Below the pieces are notes generated by a model, which saw only the letters and a program-made list of their open reading frames with translations, made no database searches and was not told the origin of the DNA. From an uncultured Microbacteriaceae bacterium (lineage in GTDB: Bacteria > Actinomycetota > Actinomycetes > Actinomycetales > Microbacteriaceae): a stretch of 28,623 nt of DNA. Of this stretch, positions 6,586 to 27,645 are shown piece after piece; within the stretch, counting starts at the first letter, position 1; every line of letters begins with the position of its first letter. Location of the stretch: assembly GCA_964651425.1 (NCBI GenBank), contig CAZYYL010000002.1, forward strand, positions 1-28,623, written 5' to 3'. Made by a program: the position numbers and the translations under genes.

Positions 6586-8010
6586 TTAGGCGCGAATGAG
6601 TGCGAGAACTTCGTCTCGAATGCGTTCCATGGTCGGCGCATCCGCTGCCTCAACGTTCAAGCGCAACAGTGGCTCTGTGTTCGACGGACGAACACTGAAC
6701 CACCAGAAAGGTTCACCCTCGGCGATGTTGCCCGTGATCGTGAGTCCGTCGAGCGCGTCTTCGGTGCCACGATCGGCGAACGCCTGACGAACGCGATCGG
6801 TTGATGCGGCAACGTTGTCGACGGTTGAGTTGATTTCGCCACTGAGAACATATGGCGAGTACTCGCGTGCAAATTCCGAAAGCGGATGCGCCTGGTGACC
6901 GAATTCGGCCAGCACGTGCATTGACGCGAGCATGCCGTTGTCGGCACCCCAGAATTCGCGGAAGTAATAGTGCGCGGAGTGCTCGCCCCCAAAGACCGCC
7001 TGAGTACGGGCCATTTCGTCTTTGATGAGCGAGTGCCCGACGCGCGTGCGAACGGGAGTCGCACCGGCAGCCTCAATCGCCTCGGGGACGTACCGCGAGG
7101 TAATGAGGTTGTGAATGATGTTGATCTTGGCGTTCGGGTTGGTCGCACGAACGCGAGCGATTTCGCGTAGCGCAACGATGGCGGCGACGGCCGATGGGGT
7201 CACGGGGTCACCCTTTTCGTCGACGACGAAGCAGCGGTCAGCGTCACCATCGAATGCGAGGCCCACATCAGCTCCGTGTTCAACGACCGCCTTTTGCAGG
7301 TCGACGAGGTTTGCCGGTTCGAGCGGGTTGGCTTCATGGTTCGGGAACGTGCCGTCGAGTTCGAAGTACATCGGGATGATCTCAATGGGCAACGCGGCCA
7401 GACCGGCTGCCGTGCCCAACACCGCGGGAACGGTCATTCCGCCCATGCCGTTGCCTGCGTCGACGACAACCTTGAGAGGGCGGATGTCCGAGAGGTCGAC
7501 GAGCGACCGGAGGTAGGCGGCGTACTCGGTGAGAACATCCTGCTCTCGGTATTCGCCGGGAGCAGCGACTGACTCCATGCCATTACGCAAGTAGGCCATC
7601 GCGCGGTCACGAATCGCGGCGAGACCAGTATCGAGGCTGATGCCCTGAGCCCCCGCGCGAGAAAACTTGATGCCGTTGTACTTGGCCGGATTGTGGCTGG
7701 CCGTAAACATGGCGGCGGGCGCGTGCCATTTGCCCGAGGCGAAGTACGTTTCATCAGTCGAGCAGAGGCCAATGTTGACGACGTTCGCGCCGCGGGCGTT
7801 TGCACCGCGAGCGAAGGCCTCGGCGAAAACGGGGGACGAATCGCGCATGTCATGACCGACGATGACGTCAGATCCGGCCGCACCAATCTCGTCGACGAAT
7901 CCGGCCGCCAGCGCTTCGATCATTTCTGCAGTGAGGGTCTCGCCCACAACACCACGAACGTCGTACGCCTTGACGGCGAGGCTCAATTGTTCTGCTGCGT
8001 CAAAACTCAC
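6586..8010 (-). CDS. manB: Phosphomannomutase/phosphoglucomutase, 474 aa
   Basis: KAYDVRG, phosphoserine TASHN, metal-binding FDGDADR, sugar-binding GEHSAH and C-terminal RPSNTEP. Confidence 0.93.
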   Translation of the reverse strand: MSFDAAEQLSLAVKAYDVRGVVGETLTAEMIEALAAGFVDEIGAAGSDVIVGHDMRDSSPVFAEAFARGANARGANVVNIGLCSTDETYFASGKWHAPAAMFTASHNPAKYNGIKFSRAGAQGISLDTGLAAIRDRAMAYLRNGMESVAAPGEYREQDVLTEYAAYLRSLVDLSDIRPLKVVVDAGNGMGGMTVPAVLGTAAGLAALPIEIIPMYFELDGTFPNHEANPLEPANLVDLQKAVVEHGADVGLAFDGDADRCFVVDEKGDPVTPSAVAAIVALREIARVRATNPNAKINIIHNLITSRYVPEAIEAAGATPVRTRVGHSLIKDEMARTQAVFGGEHSAHYYFREFWGADNGMLASMHVLAEFGHQAHPLSEFAREYSPYVLSGEINSTVDNVAASTDRVRQAFADRGTEDALDGLTITGNIAEGEPFWWFSVRPSNTEPLLRLNVEAADAPTMERIRDEVLALIRA

Positions 8011-8253: not shown

Positions 8254-8697
8254 GTGACTCCTCCCCGTTTCGCTGCCAGTAACGAAGTTCCCGTGCGCGG
8301 GCTCTGGCGTGACCGCCACGGTCGAGGAATGCGCGTTGCCGTGACGGGGCCGCATCTGCCGGATGCCCGCGGCCGACTCGAAACGTTCTATGTGACGGTC
8401 GCACACACGGCCCAGTACTTGCGTTCGTTGTGGCCCGAAGAACTCGAGGGTGTGCACTTCGACGTGGCGAACGGCCCCGTGAAAGAAGTCGACGGCACGG
8501 TCGTCCCGCGATGGAAAGTGGATGCGGCGCGCCGGCGAATTGTGTTGTATCGCTTGCCCATCCAACGCCTCAGTCGCCTGCACAAGGACGACGAGCTGCA
8601 TCGCCAAATGGCAATCGAAGGTTGTGTGTTCTCCGCCGTTGCCGAGCTAATCGGCAAGGAGCCGTGGGAACTCGGCTCGCAGCGTTTCCGCCACTAG
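8254..8697 (+). CDS. Zincin-like 'metallopeptidase family' protein (Rv3259-like) without HExxH, about 147 aa
   Basis: RDRHGRGMR N-terminal motif, RIVLYRLPI and C-terminal VAELIGKEP. Divergent from DUF3499. Start uncertain (ATG 8245 or GTG 8254). Confidence 0.78.
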   Translation: MTPPRFAASNEVPVRGLWRDRHGRGMRVAVTGPHLPDARGRLETFYVTVAHTAQYLRSLWPEELEGVHFDVANGPVKEVDGTVVPRWKVDAARRRIVLYRLPIQRLSRLHKDDELHRQMAIEGCVFSAVAELIGKEPWELGSQRFRH

Positions 8698-8717: not shown

Positions 8718-10379
8718 CTAACGCGGGTAAACCAGAATCGCCGAGCCCAACTTCGACGGCGCGCGGACGGTCGCCGCACTCGCTTGACCCAGCCCGCCGT
8801 AGGTCACCCCCGCGCGCATGGCTGTTGCACCGTCGAGTCGATACAGGGTGCCCGGCTTCACGACTAGCGTCGTCGCACTTCCGGGCTGAAGTTCGACCGT
8901 GTGGTCGGAGTCGTCGTTGGAGCTCAACGTGAGTGAGGCGACCACGGTTGAGCCGTTGAACACGGTGAGCTGTGCGGCGGGCGCGTTCGCGATGGGCACG
9001 AGCGTCGCATCCGTTAGTTCTGATGTCGACGCGTACCATGCGAAATCGCCACCGCCCACTACGGCGGACACGTTTGACGGTGCGCCGACAGCTTGCCCGG
9101 GAGCCGCAGTTGCGCCAGGGGCCGGCGCAACCAGCTGACCGGTCCCGTCGAGAGGACCTTCCATGTTCGCTTGAAGTTTTGCGGTCGGCGTCGGTGAGCT
9201 CGAGGCCCCCGGCGTCGGCGATGCTGTCGGATTTGCCGTCGATGTGGCACCGGGCGTCGCCGTCGATTTCGCGTCGGCGAACGGGTCGACATCGACCGGA
9301 ACGACCGTGCGCACGGCCGCAACAATCGGTGTGGTGCCGGTCGCAATCACCGTGTACGTGCCGTCGGGAATCGAGTTGAACGGCAGTTGCAGCGCAACAC
9401 CCGGCTTAGCCGTCGCCTTCACCTCAGTGGTCGTGCCGTCGGCCGCGATGGTGGTCACGACGACATCACTGGGCGCATCGGTCGTTGCGAGAATTCGAAC
9501 GGTCGGCTCCTGCTCCGACGTGACCGCGCCACCCTCAGAGTCAGAGAACTGTGCCATGCCGACCAAGCGCACACCGGTCATGATTTGCGTTGTATTGGGG
9601 GCTGCACCGGGCTCAACGATTTCAACGCCCGACGGAAGGATCGTGCGCACGAGCACCTGTTGCAAGCTCGTCGCAAGCGAGCCACCCGAACTCGACACGT
9701 GCACCACGGGCGCATACAAATCCGGGGCGATGGATGCGAGTCCCACCAATTTCTGCGTGCCGGCCTGCACGACGACGTCGTTGGATCCCGTCGGTGTCAC
9801 GCGACCCTTCTCACCGAAAACGTCGATGTGCACCGAGGCATCCGTGATGGACGCGTTGGTCAGGTTGATGACGGTCGTTTGACCGAGGTCGCTCGCGCCA
9901 CCAACAAGCCAACTTTCCGCTTCGGGTTCGACACAGGGTGATGCCGCTAAACCAGCCATATCGTCGGCCAACACAGTCTGAGACTGTGTGCCGGCAAGAA
10001 GCGCAATCGAGCCATCTGCTGGAGGGGCAACACTCAACACGGCCGGCGCGAGCGTGCCGTTCTGGTTCGTCGCGTCGACGACCGACACGTACGTCTCGTC
10101 GACGGGGTCGTTCGTTGAACCCGAGGTGATGTCGGGTCGTTCGGTGCCGACATACGATGTCGCATCGCCGTCGCGGGTCTGCACTCCGAGGAGCGGTCCG
10201 GGGCACACGCGAACCGCCGTCGACGCGGTGGGGTCGACCGTCATCGATACCGGTGAGCCCGCGAGCACAGGGAACGGAATAACGCAAAGCCCAAGCACGA
10301 CTACTCCCGCGATGCCAAGACCAACGAGTCCGGCTGCCGACGTGAGTCCGGCGCGAACGACACTAATTTTGCGGTTCAT
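8718..10379 (-). CDS. DUF5719-type membrane-anchored extracellular protein, about 553 aa
   Basis: N-terminal TM, RVCPGP, GLAASPC...SWLVGG, LTNAS, DFAWY. SD GGAGG at 10385-10389 before ATG 10379. Overlaps the GT2 stop by 17 nt. Confidence 0.8.
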   Translation of the reverse strand: MNRKISVVRAGLTSAAGLVGLGIAGVVVLGLCVIPFPVLAGSPVSMTVDPTASTAVRVCPGPLLGVQTRDGDATSYVGTERPDITSGSTNDPVDETYVSVVDATNQNGTLAPAVLSVAPPADGSIALLAGTQSQTVLADDMAGLAASPCVEPEAESWLVGGASDLGQTTVINLTNASITDASVHIDVFGEKGRVTPTGSNDVVVQAGTQKLVGLASIAPDLYAPVVHVSSSGGSLATSLQQVLVRTILPSGVEIVEPGAAPNTTQIMTGVRLVGMAQFSDSEGGAVTSEQEPTVRILATTDAPSDVVVTTIAADGTTTEVKATAKPGVALQLPFNSIPDGTYTVIATGTTPIVAAVRTVVPVDVDPFADAKSTATPGATSTANPTASPTPGASSSPTPTAKLQANMEGPLDGTGQLVAPAPGATAAPGQAVGAPSNVSAVVGGGDFAWYASTSELTDATLVPIANAPAAQLTVFNGSTVVASLTLSSNDDSDHTVELQPGSATTLVVKPGTLYRLDGATAMRAGVTYGGLGQASAATVRAPSKLGSAILVYPR

Positions 10380-21737: not shown

Positions 21738-22258
21738 CGCGCGTTACCCCCGGCCGAGCGGTCGACGAGCTCGGTGACCGCGGCCTGAACGAGTGACGCG
21801 CGCGGAACATCCCGCATCACGACATCCCGTTCTGCGCCCGTGCCGAGATGCACATCGCCGGACCCGAACATCGCCTGAACCAGGTTGGAGCGAATCGTCA
21901 CGTCGTGCACGCGCGTGAACGGGAGTTCCGAACGCACGCGGCGAAAAACGCCACGTTGGATGATCACGCGGCGCGTGGTGATGGTCATGCGTTTGCTGCG
22001 CCACACGGTCAGGGGCAGCAACCACCCGAACACGAAGACCAGGAGTACGAGCGCGGTGGCGGCGCCGCGCATCCATTCGTCGCCTAAGAACCCGAGTGCG
22101 AAGCCGAAACCGGTGGCCACGGCAATCACGGCGACTGACGGAAAGAACATCACTCGACCGTGCGGGCGCAGGCGGGCGATGACGAATTCGGGCGACGTGT
22201 CGGCGCGGGCACCAGTCGGTCGGGTGTCATTCGCACCCGTTGAACCGTCTCGCGCCAT
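21707..22258 (-). CDS. Membrane protein with bacterial PH (bPH_2, YdbS-like) domain, 183 aa
   Basis: Two TMs, then [13 protein letters not shown]...[10 protein letters not shown]...QAMFGSGDV. Confidence 0.82.
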
Positions 22259-22264
22259 TCGTCA

Positions 22265-22270
22265 AGTATG
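22265..22270 (-). promoter_or_regulatory. Putative -10 (CATACT), leaderless PH-domain gene
   Basis: CATACT, 6 nt, then ATG 22258. Confidence 0.45.
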
Positions 22271-22283
22271 GCGAAACCCGGTG

Positions 22284-23126
22284 TCAGATCACGCGAACGT
22301 GAGTGACGTCACCTACCGAAACCGCCAATGTCTCACCCGCGCGTGCGGTCGGCGTGTCGAGTGTGACAACCAGCGCACCGACGGCGTCGATCGACTCGGC
22401 CTGGCCCATGACTTCGGAGCCGTCGGGCAACTCAACGCGCACGCGACGACCGAGCGTGTCGCACTCACGCTGTATGTCAGCGAGCAGGCCACTCGACTCG
22501 GCGTTGCCCTCGGCAGCCTCGAACACGCGCGTGACGCGACGGAATTCAGTGAGGTAGGCCGCGAGCACCGAATCGATGTCTGTCGATGTCGCTCCGGCGA
22601 GCGCCAAGGACGTCGCCGTGTCGACGAGCAGTTCGTCGCGCGTGAGCGACACGTTGACGCCGGTTCCGACGATGACGGCGGTCTCGCCCGTCGCGTCGGC
22701 CACGAGTTCGCACAAAATGCCACACACTTTGCGCATTCCGTCGGGGGTTTCGATGAGCACGTCGTTCGGCCACTTCAAGCGCGCATCTCGGGCGCGCGGC
22801 AACAGGGTCTCAATCGCGCGAGTCATGGCGAGACCGGCCAGCAACGGGTACCACCCCCACGCGTCGGTCGGCAGAGGTCGCCCGCTCGGCGTGCGTGGAC
22901 GAATGAGAACGGATGCGGCCAGCGAGCCACCCGGGTGATTCACCCATTCGCGACCGAGGCGTCCGCGCCCCGAGCGCTGGTCGTCCGTGGCGACCACGGT
23001 GAAGTCGGGGCTGTCGAGCTCGGTGGTCTCGCGCGCCAATTCGCTGAGGTCCTCGTTCGTCGAACCGGTGTGGGGCATCCATCGCCACAGGCTGGCGAGG
23101 GCGGAAGACTGGGGAAATTCGGGCAC
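22284..23126 (-). CDS. birA: Biotin--[acetyl-CoA carboxylase] ligase without N-terminal HTH (group II), 280 aa
   Basis: [43 protein letters not shown]. Confidence 0.94.
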
Positions 23127-23132
23127 GAGAAC

Positions 23133-23138
23133 ATTGTG
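23133..23138 (-). promoter_or_regulatory. Putative -10 (CACAAT), leaderless birA
   Basis: CACAAT, 6 nt, then GTG 23126. Confidence 0.5.
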
Positions 23139-23153
23139 CCGGTTAACTGCTTA

Positions 23154-23182
23154 CTGACCCGGAGGGTGAGTGGCGGTAGGGT
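23154..23182 (+). promoter_or_regulatory. Putative promoter (CTGACC-17 nt-TAGGGT), leaderless accD
   Basis: TAGGGT at 23177-23182, 7 nt, then GTG 23190. A -35-like CTGACC sits at 23154-23159. Confidence 0.55.
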
Positions 23183-23189
23183 GAAATCC

Positions 23190-24788
23190 GTGAGTTCTGA
23201 CGCGACATCCATCGACCCGTTCACTACAGCGGGCAAACTGGCTGACCTCAAGCAGCGCTACCACGAGGCCGTTCTGGCGAGTGGTGAAGCAGCCATCGCC
23301 AAGCAGCACGCCAAGGGCAAAGGCACGGCGCGCGAGCGCATCGACGGCCTGCTCGACCCCGGCTCATTCGTCGAACTCGACGAGTTCGTGCGCCACCGCA
23401 CCACGGCCTTCGGCATGGACAAGTCCCGCCCCTACGGCGACTCGGTCGTCACTGGTGTCGGCACAATTCACGGACGTCAGGTCGCCGTCTACTCCCAAGA
23501 CTTCACCATTTTCGGTGGCTCGCTCGGTGAGGTTGCCGGCGAGAAGATCATCAAGATCATGGACCACGCGCTCAAGACCGGCGTGCCCATCATTGGCATG
23601 CTCGACTCGGGTGGTGCGCGCATCCAGGAGGGTGTCGTCGCGCTCGGAAAGTACGGTGAGATCTTCCGCCGCAACACGGCCGCCTCGGGTGTCATCCCGC
23701 AGATTTCGATCATCATGGGCCCGGCCGCCGGTGGTGCTGTGTACTCCCCCGCGCTCACCGACTTCGTGATCATGGTCGACAAGACGTCGCACATGTTCGT
23801 GACTGGCCCCGACGTGATCAAGACCGTCACAGGTGAAGAGGTCGGGTTTGAAGAGCTCGGTGGTGCGTTGACGCACAACACGATTTCCGGTGTGGCGCAC
23901 TACCTTGCATCGGACGAAGACGATGCGCTCGACTACGCGCGCACGTTGGTCTCGTACCTGCCCGACAACAACATGGCAGAGCATCCGGTCTACGAAGCGG
24001 ATGCGGAACTCGAGATCACCGACGCCGACAAGAAACTCAACACGCTGATTCCGGATTCGCCGAACCAGCCATACGACATGCACGAAGTCATTCGCCACGT
24101 TGTCGACCACGAGGACTTCCTCGAGGTGCAGCCGCTCTTCGCGCCGAACATTTTGATTGGTTTCGCTCGCGTCGAGGGTCGTACGGTCGGCATCATCGCA
24201 AACCAGCCGAGCCAGATGGCCGGAACCCTGAACATCGAGGCCGGTGAAAAGGCGAGTCGTTTCGTTCGTTTCTGTGACGCGTTCTCGATTCCGATTCTCA
24301 CGCTCGTCGACGTACCGGGTTACCTGCCCGGCACCGACCAAGAGTGGACCGGTGTGATTCGTCGTGGAGCAAAGTTGCTCTACGCCTACGCCGAAGCGAC
24401 CGTTCCCCTCGTGACCGTCATCACGCGCAAGGCCTACGGTGGCGCCTACATCGTTATGGGTTCGAAGCAGCTCGGTGCCGACCTCAACTTTGCGTGGCCG
24501 ACTGCGGAAATTGCCGTCATGGGTGGTCAGGGTGCGGTGAACATTTTGTTCCGCGACAAGATCAAAGCCGCCGAAGAAGCCGGCGAAGACGTTGCTGCCG
24601 TGCGCACGAAGCTGGCCAACGAATACACGTACAACGTGGCCAGCCCCTTCCTCGCCGCCGAGCGAGGTGAACTCGACGGTGTCATCGAGCCTGCGTCGAC
24701 CCGCGTTGCTGTGTTGAAGGCGTTCCGTGCCCTGCGCGGAAAGCGGTCGAGCTTGCCGCCGAAGAAGCACGGGAACATCCCGCTCTAA
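23190..24788 (+). CDS. accD: Acyl-CoA (propionyl/acetyl-CoA) carboxylase carboxyltransferase beta subunit, AccD5/PccB type, 532 aa
   Basis: [63 protein letters not shown]. Start moved from 21885 to GTG 23190. Confidence 0.95.
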
Positions 24789-25030
24789 TGTCGGAAGAAT
24801 TCGACGAGTACGAACTGCACCTGCAAGACAAGGTGCGTTTCGTTACGCGCGGTGTAACCCCCGAAGAGAAGGCCGCCGTCATCGTGGCTCTCGACAAGAT
24901 CGTCGATGAAGAGTCGGCGATGGAACACAGTTCCGCTGCCGGTGGCGAATCGATGTGGGATAAGCGTCGCAAGGGCATCCGTGAGAACCTGTGGCTCACG
25001 CGTGACTTCACCGACGACTTCACGAACTAG
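24788..25030 (+). CDS. Acyl-CoA carboxylase epsilon subunit, 80 aa
   Basis: VRFVTRGVTPEEKAAVIVAL...W..RR pattern. TAATG overlap with the accD stop. Confidence 0.75.
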   Translation: MSEEFDEYELHLQDKVRFVTRGVTPEEKAAVIVALDKIVDEESAMEHSSAAGGESMWDKRRKGIRENLWLTRDFTDDFTN

Positions 25031-25050: not shown

Positions 25051-25392
25051 ATGTCTGACCCACTTGGCGTGCACGCCGGCCGCTACAACGCCGAGTACAC
25101 CGAGGCCGAAAACAAGTCGTTCACCGAGCAGTTCGGTGCGATCACCACGGCGATGGCGGCGGCGATGGCTGATGGCGTTGCGTCGTCGGACGACCGCGTG
25201 CAAGACCTCATCCGTCAGCACTACGAGTTCTGCCTGAAGTTCTGGAAGCCGACCCGCGAGGCCTACAAGAGTTTGGCGATGAGTTACATCTTGCCGTCGC
25301 CGTATCGCGAGACGTACGAAGCCGTCGCTCCGGGATTGGGCAAGTATCACTACGACGCGATTGTGGTGTGGGCGGATACGCACCTCACGTAA
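25051..25392 (+). CDS. Stand-alone TipAS-type antibiotic-recognition domain protein (no MerR HTH), 113 aa
   Basis: G.ASSDDRVQ.LI.QHY...FW.PTREAY..L...Y.......YEA.APGL.KY..DAI aligns by eye with TipAS. Host-like codon usage. Confidence 0.75.
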   Translation: MSDPLGVHAGRYNAEYTEAENKSFTEQFGAITTAMAAAMADGVASSDDRVQDLIRQHYEFCLKFWKPTREAYKSLAMSYILPSPYRETYEAVAPGLGKYHYDAIVVWADTHLT

Positions 25393-25404
25393 CCCGCGAA
25401 CACA

Positions 25405-25632
25405 TCTCATCAGTCTGGGGTTTTGCCCTGACACTCCCGGGCTCGTTCGGGTCAGAATGAGGGTCTGTTTGACGTGCGACTCCCCTTGTCGTGCGCCTCA
25501 CACAGCACTGTGGGCCGAGGCACTTTTCGGGTTGTTGCCTCGGCTCACTCTCTAAGCAGGTCAGAGGGTCAGCTGCACAAGTTGGCTCTCTGATCTTTGC
25601 CCGAGGGTCGGGGACCGGACTTCGAGTGCCGG
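25405..25632 (+). ncRNA. Candidate structured non-coding RNA or 3' UTR element of unknown family
   Basis: Stems at 25428-25455, 25473-25495, 25510-25548 (13 bp) and 25558-25596 (16 bp). All nine wobble positions are G-U on the + strand. Largest intergenic gap in the window. Confidence 0.55.
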
Positions 25633-25643
25633 GTATGCGAATG

Positions 25644-26927
25644 CTAGGCGCGAACGAACCGCGCAACCGCCTCGACGTGATGCGTGTGCGGGAACAAGTC
25701 GTGCGCCTCGAGGTGCGCCAACTCATAGCCACTCTGAGTCAGCAGGTGCGCATCCCGAGCCACTGCCACCGGGTCACACGCGACATACACAATCTGCGCG
25801 GGGGCCAGCTCGGCGAGCGCCGCGACGACGGCTCGGCCGGCACCCGAACGAGGCGGGTCGAGCACGACCGTGGCCGCGGCGAGGCGCGAACGGTCGACCG
25901 CCGAGGCGGTCGCGATGAGCTCTTCGAGAAAGTGGTCGACACGAGCGGTCACAGCACGAGCGCCGACCCAGTCGGCGAGGTTTTCGGACGCAAACTCGGT
26001 CGCCTCTTCGTCGAGCTCGACGCTTGTCATGCGCGTGGTTGTTCCGAACGCGTCACCCATCGCCGCGGCGAGCAGGCCGACACCACCGTAGAGGTCGAGG
26101 TTTGCCGCGCGCGGGTCGAACATTTGGTCATCGATTGCTCGGGTGACCGCCTCGGTCAACACGAGTGGTGCGCGGCGGTGGACTTGCCAGAATCCGGATG
26201 CACGCAATCGGAATTCGCGATCCCCGACGCGCTGCGTGATGAGTGGCGCTTTCGTTGAGTCTTTGTCGCGCGACTCGAGTGCGACCACACCACTGTCGGC
26301 ATCGACGAGTGTGACGCCGTCGACTCCGCGCAAGTTCGCCCCGAGTGGCGCCGACTCTTGAATCTTGCGCGTCGCAAGCGGAAGGCTAGCCACGCGCACC
26401 ACCCGGTGACTTCGAATGGCGTACGGGCCGACGTTGCCCTCGTCGTCGACGTGCAAGAACTCGCGCGTGCGGTAGCCAAGACCGTTCGTCTCGTCGTCAC
26501 CGGGGGCCGACGAAACCGTGACCTTCGTATCGATTTTGGCCATGCGTGTGAACGAATCGGTGAGCACGAATGCTTTCAGCTCGCGCTGGTGGGCAAGTTC
26601 AATGTGGCCGAAGTCGGCGCCGCCAGGTCGCACGGCCGGGTCGCGCTCGATGCGCGCTTCGTCCCACACGTGTTCGCGACGGAACTTCGATGGCGCGAGC
26701 ACCTCAATGGTGTCGGCACGCCAGAAACTCTTCTGTGAGTCGTCGGTGACGCGGGCGCGAACGCGTTCGCCGGGAATCGCATCCGTGACGAAAATCACCC
26801 GACCGTCATGTCGAGCGACGAAGACACCGCCGTGAGCCACGTTGGTAATGTCGAGTTCGACCTCGGTTCCTAAGAAACCGGCCGATCGGGTGACGGTCGG
26901 TCGGACATTGCGGGGTCGTGGGCTCAC
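25644..26927 (-). CDS. TRAM-domain class I SAM-dependent RNA methyltransferase (RlmD/TrmA family), about 427 aa
   Basis: TRAM domain VAHGG.FVAR...IFV..AIPGE, then FWQVH, LDLYGGVG, VLDPPRSG, catalytic YVACDP and DLFPHTHHVE. Start GTG 26927 (alternative ATG 26939). Confidence 0.9.
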   Translation of the reverse strand: MSPRPRNVRPTVTRSAGFLGTEVELDITNVAHGGVFVARHDGRVIFVTDAIPGERVRARVTDDSQKSFWRADTIEVLAPSKFRREHVWDEARIERDPAVRPGGADFGHIELAHQRELKAFVLTDSFTRMAKIDTKVTVSSAPGDDETNGLGYRTREFLHVDDEGNVGPYAIRSHRVVRVASLPLATRKIQESAPLGANLRGVDGVTLVDADSGVVALESRDKDSTKAPLITQRVGDREFRLRASGFWQVHRRAPLVLTEAVTRAIDDQMFDPRAANLDLYGGVGLLAAAMGDAFGTTTRMTSVELDEEATEFASENLADWVGARAVTARVDHFLEELIATASAVDRSRLAAATVVLDPPRSGAGRAVVAALAELAPAQIVYVACDPVAVARDAHLLTQSGYELAHLEAHDLFPHTHHVEAVARFVRA

Positions 26928-26934
26928 AGCATTG

Positions 26935-26943
26935 AGCATCCCA
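26935..26943 (-). promoter_or_regulatory. Putative extended -10 (TGG-GATGCT), leaderless methyltransferase
   Basis: GATGCT, 7 nt, then GTG 26927, with TGn immediately upstream. Confidence 0.4.
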
Positions 26944-26955
26944 CATCCACACACA

Positions 26956-26985
26956 GCCTTCACACCCCGAGCCCTCACACCCCGA
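26956..26985. repeat. 15-bp direct tandem repeat GCC(T/C)TCACACCCCGA x2
   Basis: GCCTTCACACCCCGA (26956-26970) and GCCCTCACACCCCGA (26971-26985), 14/15 identical. Confidence 0.8.
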
Positions 26986-27015
26986 CCACGCCTCGAGAAC
27001 CCGGCAGGACCCCTC

Positions 27016-27645
27016 ATGCGCCTTTACCTCGCCTCCACCTCACCTGCGCGACTTGCGACACTTCGCGCCGCCGGCATTGAGCCCGTCGTCGTCCCGAGCC
27101 AGGTAGATGAGGACGGCGCGGTTGCTGCGGCCGAACTCGAACGCGGTCAAGTGCTCGAGCCCGCCGAAATGGTGCTGTTGCTCGCACGCGCCAAGGCCGA
27201 AGCGGTCGTCGCGTCCGACGTGGACGGACTTGTGCTTGGTGGCGACTCCGCATTCGTGCTCGACGGGATCACCTATGGCAAACCGCACGAGCCCGATGTG
27301 GCCCGTGAACGTTGGCTCAAACAACGCGGACGCACCGGTGAGCTCTTCAGCGGCCACTGGCTGATACACGTGTCGAATGGCGAGGTTTTCGCCGCCGTGG
27401 GCGAAGTGGCTGTGGCCGGCGTGACCTTTGCGAATGACATCACGGATGCCGAACTCGACTCCTACATCGACTCGGGCGAACCTCTCCAGGTTGCCGGTGC
27501 CTTCACCATTGATTCCCTCGGCGGCCCGTTCATCGAGCGCATCGAGGGTGATCCATCCACCGTCATTGGTGTGAGTTTGCCCACCGTGCGCCGGCTCGCG
27601 AACAAACTCGGAGTGTTCTGGCCTGACCTCTGGAATCGCGCCTAG
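27016..27645 (+). CDS. maf: Maf family nucleoside triphosphate pyrophosphatase, 209 aa
   Basis: LYLASTSPAR, SQVDE, AKA, GGDS, YGKP, AGAFTI, GDPSTVIG. Start ATG 27016 with GCAGGA upstream. Confidence 0.92.
   Translation: MRLYLASTSPARLATLRAAGIEPVVVPSQVDEDGAVAAAELERGQVLEPAEMVLLLARAKAEAVVASDVDGLVLGGDSAFVLDGITYGKPHEPDVARERWLKQRGRTGELFSGHWLIHVSNGEVFAAVGEVAVAGVTFANDITDAELDSYIDSGEPLQVAGAFTIDSLGGPFIERIEGDPSTVIGVSLPTVRRLANKLGVFWPDLWNRA

Follow-up and report, generated by a model that had tools for sequence, protein, structure and literature searches.

Small RNAs can be derived from the 3' UTR of a transcript and share the terminator of the operon upstream, as CpxQ and SroC do in enterobacteria. A second comparison is the actinobacterial 6C sRNA (RF01066; PMC6486639, PMC5014011), whose C-rich loops are seeds that pair with G-rich targets without a chaperone (PMC6486639), and a third is the intrinsic terminator, which in actinobacteria includes 'I-shaped', U-poor forms. 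The nearest thematic link comes from mycobacteria, where the accD5-accE5-Rv3282 operon is the target of Mcr11, an unrelated trans-acting sRNA (PMC7064933). In the searchable literature we found no regulatory RNA or sRNA described for Microbacteriaceae, and no RNA placed after accE. The RNA described here represents an undescribed family. It is a hairpin sRNA or structured 3' UTR, tied to the acyl-CoA carboxylase operon and patchily retained in the clade of the genome that we analysed.

The window, by which we mean the whole 28,623-nt stretch under analysis, comes from a Microbacteriaceae genome with a GC content of about 60%. A 251-nt gap (25393-25643) separates the stop codon of a TipAS-domain gene on the + strand from that of a convergent methyltransferase gene on the - strand (Table 1). 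The TipAS gene is the last of a string that begins with accD5, an accD5-type carboxyltransferase gene on the same strand (PF01039 in the gene calls of relatives), and continues with an 80-aa ORF in the accE position. This ORF has no Pfam match at E <= 0.01; only its position and its similarity to the ORFs of neighbours lead us to name it accE. The genes maf and a biotin carboxylase gene lie downstream of the methyltransferase gene. Two of the mechanically called ORFs are probably too long. That of the methyltransferase (457 aa) is likely over-long, since the relatives' proteins have 412-444 aa and their alignments start at residue 25-50, and the 967-aa ORF that holds accD5 (21885-24788, +) extends back across a biotin-ligase gene on the opposite strand, the relatives' accD5 having 532-535 aa. 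The ORFs that overlap the gap itself (25361-25555 on the + strand and 25385-25732 on the - strand) were rejected as genes, as neither has a Pfam match and the relatives' indels are not multiples of three. The nearest species-representative genome, a MAG (locus L001), has a methyltransferase 79% identical to that of the window.

Table 1. Features of the gap and its flanking genes in the window, length and content of the corresponding gap in window-clade contigs, and sites of the upstream motif in other genera
Feature	Position or length	Strand	Remarks
80-aa ORF, accE position	24788-25030	+	overlaps accD5 stop (ATGA)
Stand-alone TipAS-domain gene, 113 aa	25051-25392	+	PF07739, E 1.8e-16; same gene order in relatives
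Spacer, TipAS stop to conserved core	25393-25416	+	without conservation, hairpin or promoter-like site
Conserved 5' block GGGGUUUUGCCCUG	25417-25430	+	putative GGG/CCC 3-bp mini-hairpin, invariant
Stem A, CUGAC/GUCAG + CCGGG/UUCGG	25428-25455	+	pairs verified; hairpin varies by lineage
Domain B, outer helix AGGGUCUGU / ACAGCACU around hairpin B	25460-25509	+	MFE fold
Hairpin B	25473-25480 / 25488-25495	+	C-rich loop UCCCCUU, 25481-25487
Hairpin C, 13-bp stem 25510-25522 / 25536-25548, loop CUUUUCGGGUUGU	25510-25548	+	family signature, UCGGGU core invariant
Hairpin D, 16-bp stem 25558-25573 / 25581-25596, loop UGCACAA, then UU	25558-25598	+	99.4% of cells pair
Window-specific spacer before methyltransferase stop, 45 nt	25599-25643	no strand	not conserved
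TRAM + m5U RNA methyltransferase gene, convergent	25644-27017	-	PF01938, PF05958
Gap in L081	233 nt		element present
Gap in L082/L083	about 190 nt		element present
Gap in L092	203 nt		element present
Gap in L093-L096, L163	223-224 nt		element present
Gap in L170	245 nt		element present
Gap in L167	about 190 nt		element present
Gap in L084-L091, L127	128 nt		hairpin D only, after unrelated 5' part
Gap in L168, L169	0 nt		element absent
Upstream motif in L004	8662-8685	-	
Upstream motif in L003	8050-8075	+	
Upstream motif in L005	8579-8600	-	
Upstream motif in L006	8744-8765	-	
Upstream motif in L008	about 8585-8610	-	
Upstream motif in L023	8769-8790	-	
Upstream motif in L002	8599-8620	-	
Upstream motif in L016	8226-8246	-	
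Upstream motif in L015	about 7515-7540	-	

The gap holds a real, strand-specific, multi-hairpin RNA. An earlier sequence-only reading had drawn four stems in it, and all are present at the positions in Table 1: stem A (CTGAC/GTCAG and CCGGG/TTCGG in the DNA), B with 8 bp, C with 13 bp and D with 16 bp. Together they make 47 pairs, 38 of them Watson-Crick and nine G-U with no mismatches, exactly the number of G-U pairs that had been claimed. The suggested extension of stem B by UGAGG/CCUCA also exists and is used in the MFE fold. The claim of a UU after stem D is weaker: the letters are there, within a tail that reads CUUUG, and a U run is missing altogether from several relatives. The tails that follow hairpin D are CUCGUC, CUCAUU or CUGGGA in relatives and GCUUAC in L143, a locus discussed below. 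The + strand folds with an MFE of -117.7 kcal/mol (z = -4.35), which none of 200 dinucleotide-shuffled controls equalled, while the - strand reaches -87.3 kcal/mol (z = -1.0) and 35 of 200 shuffles were as good. The same strand preference was seen in all 17 homologues tested, where the fold of the accE-sense strand was 2-27 kcal/mol more stable than that of its complement.

Covariation and the retention of G-U pairs are direct evidence that selection acts on the + strand RNA, as the sequence-only reading had proposed. In an alignment of ten window-clade sequences, the RNAalifold structure has 96% of its cells paired, a share that falls to 37-46% with slid partners. Two-sided changes were found at 10 pairs, a number reached by none of 500 shuffles. 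Three of these pairs are in helix 2 and two in helix 3 (the outer B helix and B), and five are in hairpin C, where 97.9% of the window-clade cells pair. Variation in hairpin D is limited to switches between G-U, G-C and A-U; of its four G-U pairs, three persist in 8-10 of the 10 sequences. A separate alignment of hairpin C (A7) joined the window clade and the other genera described below in 15 sequences. The UCGGGU loop is invariant across them, 88% of cells pair (33-48% with slid partners), and 10 of the 14 pairs show two-sided changes, again reached by 0 of 500 shuffles. As the loops are invariant, covariation gives no indication of what they pair with.

Rfam does not contain this RNA. The sequence-only reading had not recognised it as a riboswitch, SRP, RNase P, tmRNA, Ms1 or 6C RNA, and none of the 4227 models of Rfam 15 matched the window at gathering score; nor did any match in eight related loci. 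In E-value mode the best score in the region was 21 bits, where the thresholds are 55-75, and the matches up to E 10 were at chance level; seven relatives had no match at E <= 1. The best sub-threshold match, Ms_IGR-4 (RF02468), is a similar-size GC-rich hairpin and was rejected as a chance hit, scoring 21.4 bits against a gathering score of 55 and lying on the wrong (-) strand. The covariation and the conserved G-U pairs support the view that this is an sRNA or a structured 3' UTR.

The RNA resembles 6C sRNA in being actinobacterial, in its stable hairpins and in having one loop with a run of C (UCCCCUU in the window, UCCCCCCU in relatives). It differs in that cmscan found no match up to E 10, in the G-containing second loop (UCGGGU), in its locus and in its greater length, about 180 nt. 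Whereas 6C is defined by two hairpins with loops of at least six C, here only hairpin B is C-rich, with 4 C in the window and 6 in relatives, and the loop of hairpin C, UUUUCGGGUUG, is not C-rich by that standard. The UUCGGGU form of this loop also suggested a tRNA T-loop, with the m5U methyltransferase as its possible partner. This was rejected because position 58 is G rather than A, the stem has 13-15 bp, and some 3 kb separate the RNA from the m5U methyltransferase gene in most genera.

The clade of the window is represented by metagenomes alone. To follow the element among near relatives we used contigs that encode a TipAS 72-95% identical to that of the window. All of them have the gene order accD5-accE-TipAS, convergent methyltransferase, maf. 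The carriers share a recurring order of blocks: GGGUUUUNCCCUG, a variable hairpin, UCUGUYUG, hairpin B, CACACAGC, hairpin C and hairpin D. The spacer between the TipAS stop and this conserved core is 13 to 44 nt long and differs in length and sequence in each relative. The 5' block GGGUUUUNCCCUG was found in all nine TipAS-linked members (alignment A4); it shows no covariation, so the pairing of its mini-hairpin is only putative. By eye, the stem A region cannot be aligned and each relative has a different hairpin there. The loop of hairpin B is C-rich in the window clade, reading UCCCCCCU in seven of ten members, and hairpin C has the loop UUUUCGGGUUG. Hairpin D is nearly invariant, with the consensus GGUCAGAGGGUCAGCUGCAYAAGUUGGCYCUCUGAUC. 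Hairpins B, C and D occur at the same site in at least eight related metagenomic lineages, with compensatory changes.

Other details of the gap vary more. Two relatives (L093 and L170) have an additional hairpin immediately after the TipAS stop. A pairing of the CCCUG block with a downstream UAGGGG was considered and rejected, since by eye it fits these two loci and not L081, L082 or L092. The 45-nt spacer that follows the element in the window has a different sequence in L081 and is only 5-10 nt long in other relatives; it contains two small hairpins (CCCGA/UCGGG and CCGG/CCGG) that can fold on both strands.

In one locus, L143, there is no TipAS gene: accE is followed directly by the RNA, which has hairpins B, C and D, and the convergent methyltransferase gene comes next. 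Its methyltransferase is 58% identical and its accE 41% identical. The C-rich loop of its hairpin B is the same UCCCCCCU. The sequence of hairpin D with its loop is nearly unchanged from the window (25558-25596) to L143 (about 885-921), which exceeds the constraint that a terminator needs.

The element is not present throughout the clade. In L001 the order accE-TipAS-methyltransferase is kept, and the stops of the last two genes overlap (ctCTAg) with no gap between them. The same overlap is seen at L001 2846-2852, L168 1836-1839 and L169 527-530, where the RNA was either cleanly lost or never gained. A sister group with TipAS 76-81% identical (L084 3343-3470, L085-L091 2843-2970 and L127 about 1350-1480 on the - strand) has hairpin D only. 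The unrelated 85-nt 5' part of this 128-nt gap includes a C/U-rich stretch, CUCUUCCCUUUUU, and the gap folds with z = -3.9; its content may be what replaced the RNA, or a remodelled form of it.

Because the 251 nt are an indel relative to so close a relative as L001, the idea arose that they are a miniature mobile element or REP-like repeat inserted between the convergent genes. L001 is the nearest relative in the genome collection, its stops overlap, and in the window the gap is flanked by a 7-nt repeat, CGCGAAC, that might have been a target-site duplication. This last point fell away when the repeat was not found in L081, the closest relative. There is no second copy in the window or in about 1 Mb of related loci, and the plasmid and phage collections gave no match to the element. 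An exact 17-mer of hairpin D matched 70 stretches of the metagenome collection, of which 67 were chance and only three real, all at the same syntenic site. In the loci searched, each copy is single and syntenic, and we found no dispersed copies, terminal inverted repeats or target-site duplication of the kind that marks a MITE or REP. The earlier suggestion of a non-autonomous element is not supported. From its distribution a dispersed mobile element seems unlikely, and for an insertion of the miniature or REP-like kind we see next to no chance.

The distribution bears equally on the proposal of a protein-RNA module in which the RNA and the TipAS protein are functional partners. The only point in its favour is that the two are adjacent in the window clade. 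L143 and all the L003-type loci of other genera have the RNA and no TipAS, and TipAS occurs without the RNA both at the same locus (L001, L168 and L169) and in the unrelated contexts of four distant homologues (L171-L174; 66-68% identical), which have no such RNA. As each is found without the other, co-occurrence speaks against the module, which we regard as very improbable. The association that the sequence-only reading missed is with the accD5-accE operon.

That association became visible outside the clade. BLASTN and nhmmer searches of the first 80 loci with the 251 nt gave one weak match only, in a Microbacteriaceae MAG (L004), and this was the lead to a wider family. Directly after accD5-accE, on the same strand and before a convergent gene, there is a strongly conserved element with no Rfam entry. 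It is carried by Naasia (L003), the MAG of L004, Homoserinimonas (L005), Microcella (L006), Agreia pratensis (L008) and Herbiconiux (L023). Clavibacter michiganensis (L002) has a diverged form, and diverged copies are found at the same address in a Microbacterium MAG (L015), with a UUCGGGU loop, and in a low-GC freshwater MAG (L016). We did not find an RNA downstream of accE in Pseudoclavibacter (L011). The consensus for these other genera comprises a hairpin whose loop reads CUAGGGUAAGCG, another of 15 bp whose 7-nt loop is UUCGGGU, and a GC-rich terminator; 21 of its 43 predicted pairs show compensatory changes. The RNA follows accE in L002-L006, L008, L015, L016 and L023, and the window differs by the TipAS gene in between.

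Two covariance models link the groups. The first (R1) was built from seven sequences of the other genera, leaving the window out. Its sole match in the window was at 25469-25598 (+), with 21.7 bits and an E-value of about 4e-4, a score to be read with the caveat that reverse-strand terminators elsewhere also reach 21-23 bits, and the match spans only hairpin C and the terminal hairpin. The second (R2), built from the window clade and L143 without the other genera, found the untrained L023, L008, L004, L003, L005 and L006 at 40, 37, 36, 29, 25 and 21 bits (E 1e-7 to 7e-3), each in the right place and on the right strand. The window lacks the P2 hairpin (loop AGGGUAAGCG) of the other genera, and R1 deletes it in the window alignment; the window clade and L143 carry the hairpin with the C-rich loop instead. 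L143 bridges the two groups, having part of the upstream motif of the other genera together with the window-clade hairpins B, C and D. As the R1 score alone is modest, the case for homology rests on the reciprocal matches, the identical loop, synteny and L143. On this comparative evidence, we assign about 180 nt of the window (25417-25598, +), as a diverged member, to an undescribed family of Microbacteriaceae RNAs that directly follow accD5-accE.

In the other genera the conserved block opens with the motif tGTCCn(N10)GACTnT, and nothing further upstream is conserved. The motif resembles a dedicated promoter, and in these genera the RNA is probably a free-standing sRNA. The same geometry is known from the 'sigma adaptation' promoters of PafBC, with the consensus tGTCgg(N10)tA(N3)T (PMC8635444). 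Like these, the motif has a GTC triplet at -26 and no -35 element, with a -10 element 10 nt on. It departs from the PafBC consensus in having cc for gg and G for T at the first base of the -10 element, and T at the last -10 base in only five of the eight aligned motifs, a count that leaves out the TACAGA of L015. Extra copies of TGTCCCCC lie upstream of the RNA at a spacing of about 10-40 nt, five of them in L006 (about 8760-8880 on the - strand) and two in each of L003-L005; these copies may be further sites for a regulator, or they may belong to a transcript that is longer. It is conceivable, though we think it distinctly doubtful, that the family is a damage- or stress-induced sRNA under a hybrid promoter with a WYL activator of the PafBC type, and that the lineage of the window rewired it into the 3' UTR of accD5-accE. 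If that were so, sRNA output in this lineage would be coupled to the expression of genes for lipid precursors, and the UCGGGU and C-rich loops would be the seeds of the sRNA or a protein-binding site.

The motif is absent upstream of the window element and from the window clade, where neither the promoter scan nor conservation gave a promoter-like site or motif upstream of the RNA. Given that TipAS separates accE from the RNA here and that the upstream motif is lacking, synthesis as the 3' end of the operon transcript is the most likely origin of the RNA. We therefore lean towards reading the window RNA as the structured 3' end of the accD5-accE-TipAS transcript, and perhaps as a 3'-derived sRNA too. 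It shares with 3' UTR-derived sRNAs its place at the 3' end of an operon, its strand, a sole terminator-like hairpin and the want of a recognisable promoter of its own. It differs from them in that the family seems to have its own upstream motif in other genera, and a 3' UTR position here would thus be a secondary capture.

The RNA could instead be an independent small RNA gene, transcribed separately from the operon by its own promoter, which would lie hidden either within the 3' end of TipAS or in the short spacer that follows; this seems to us unlikely. The strongly conserved motif of the other genera argues for it, as does the hairpin between the TipAS stop and the RNA in L093 and L170. 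This hairpin could end the operon before the RNA, and a separate promoter would then be required in those two loci. For the window the motif is absent, the promoter scan was negative, and the 13-44 nt spacers have no conserved -10-like hexamer.

The operon reading would work as follows. Transcription of accD5-accE-TipAS would run on through the RNA to hairpin D, which would terminate the transcript and shield it against 3' exonucleases. Hairpins B and C would present the C-rich loop and the invariant UCGGGU loop as functional surfaces. These might pair with G-rich or other target RNAs, as in the 6C type of actinobacterial sRNA, or bind a protein, and the 3' end may be processed into a separate sRNA. 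By analogy with 6C, base-pairing with G-rich targets is the most economical guess for the C-rich loop; contact between the two loops (CCCC with CGGG) or binding of a protein is just as conceivable.

Hairpin D is the likely 3' end of the transcript, acting as terminator and 3' protection. It is like the intrinsic terminators of actinobacteria, including the 'I-shaped', U-poor kind, in being long, stable, at the end of an operon and a few nucleotides from a convergent gene. The element goes beyond a terminator in its three further conserved hairpins and invariant loops and in the near-invariance of D; the U tract is CUUUG and is absent in several relatives. The terminator scan did not call hairpin D. 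Among the findings that count against the 3'-end reading are the want of a proper U tract after hairpin D, the extra hairpin in L093 and L170, and the dispensability of the element in some near relatives: L001, L168 and L169 have none of it, and in L084-L091 and L127 hairpin D is all that is left.

This dispensability would also fit a decaying relic, in which the arrival of TipAS deprived an ancestral sRNA of its promoter, selection now maintains only the hairpin D terminator, and the other hairpins are being lost. Presence is patchy, with gaps of 251, 233, about 190, 203, 223 and 245 nt in carriers against 128 nt (hairpin D only) and 0, and hairpin D is the best-conserved part. Where hairpins B and C are retained, however, they are kept by compensatory changes and have invariant loops across lineages whose neighbour proteins are only 58-82% identical. 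Such changes and loops imply continuing purifying selection on B and C, and we consider a relic improbable.

The Microbacteriaceae include plant pathogens such as Clavibacter as well as abundant freshwater bacteria. Across the family there is now an RNA, supported by covariation, with a fixed address beside the essential acyl-CoA carboxylase genes. With an invariant loop motif and two working covariance models available, the family can enter the RNA databases, and its carriers include cultivable strains: Agreia pratensis VKM Ac-2510, Clavibacter michiganensis CFBP8019 and Herbiconiux sp. YIM B11900. In one lineage, that of the window, an sRNA gene appears to have been captured as the 3' UTR of an operon and to have been lost in sister lineages.
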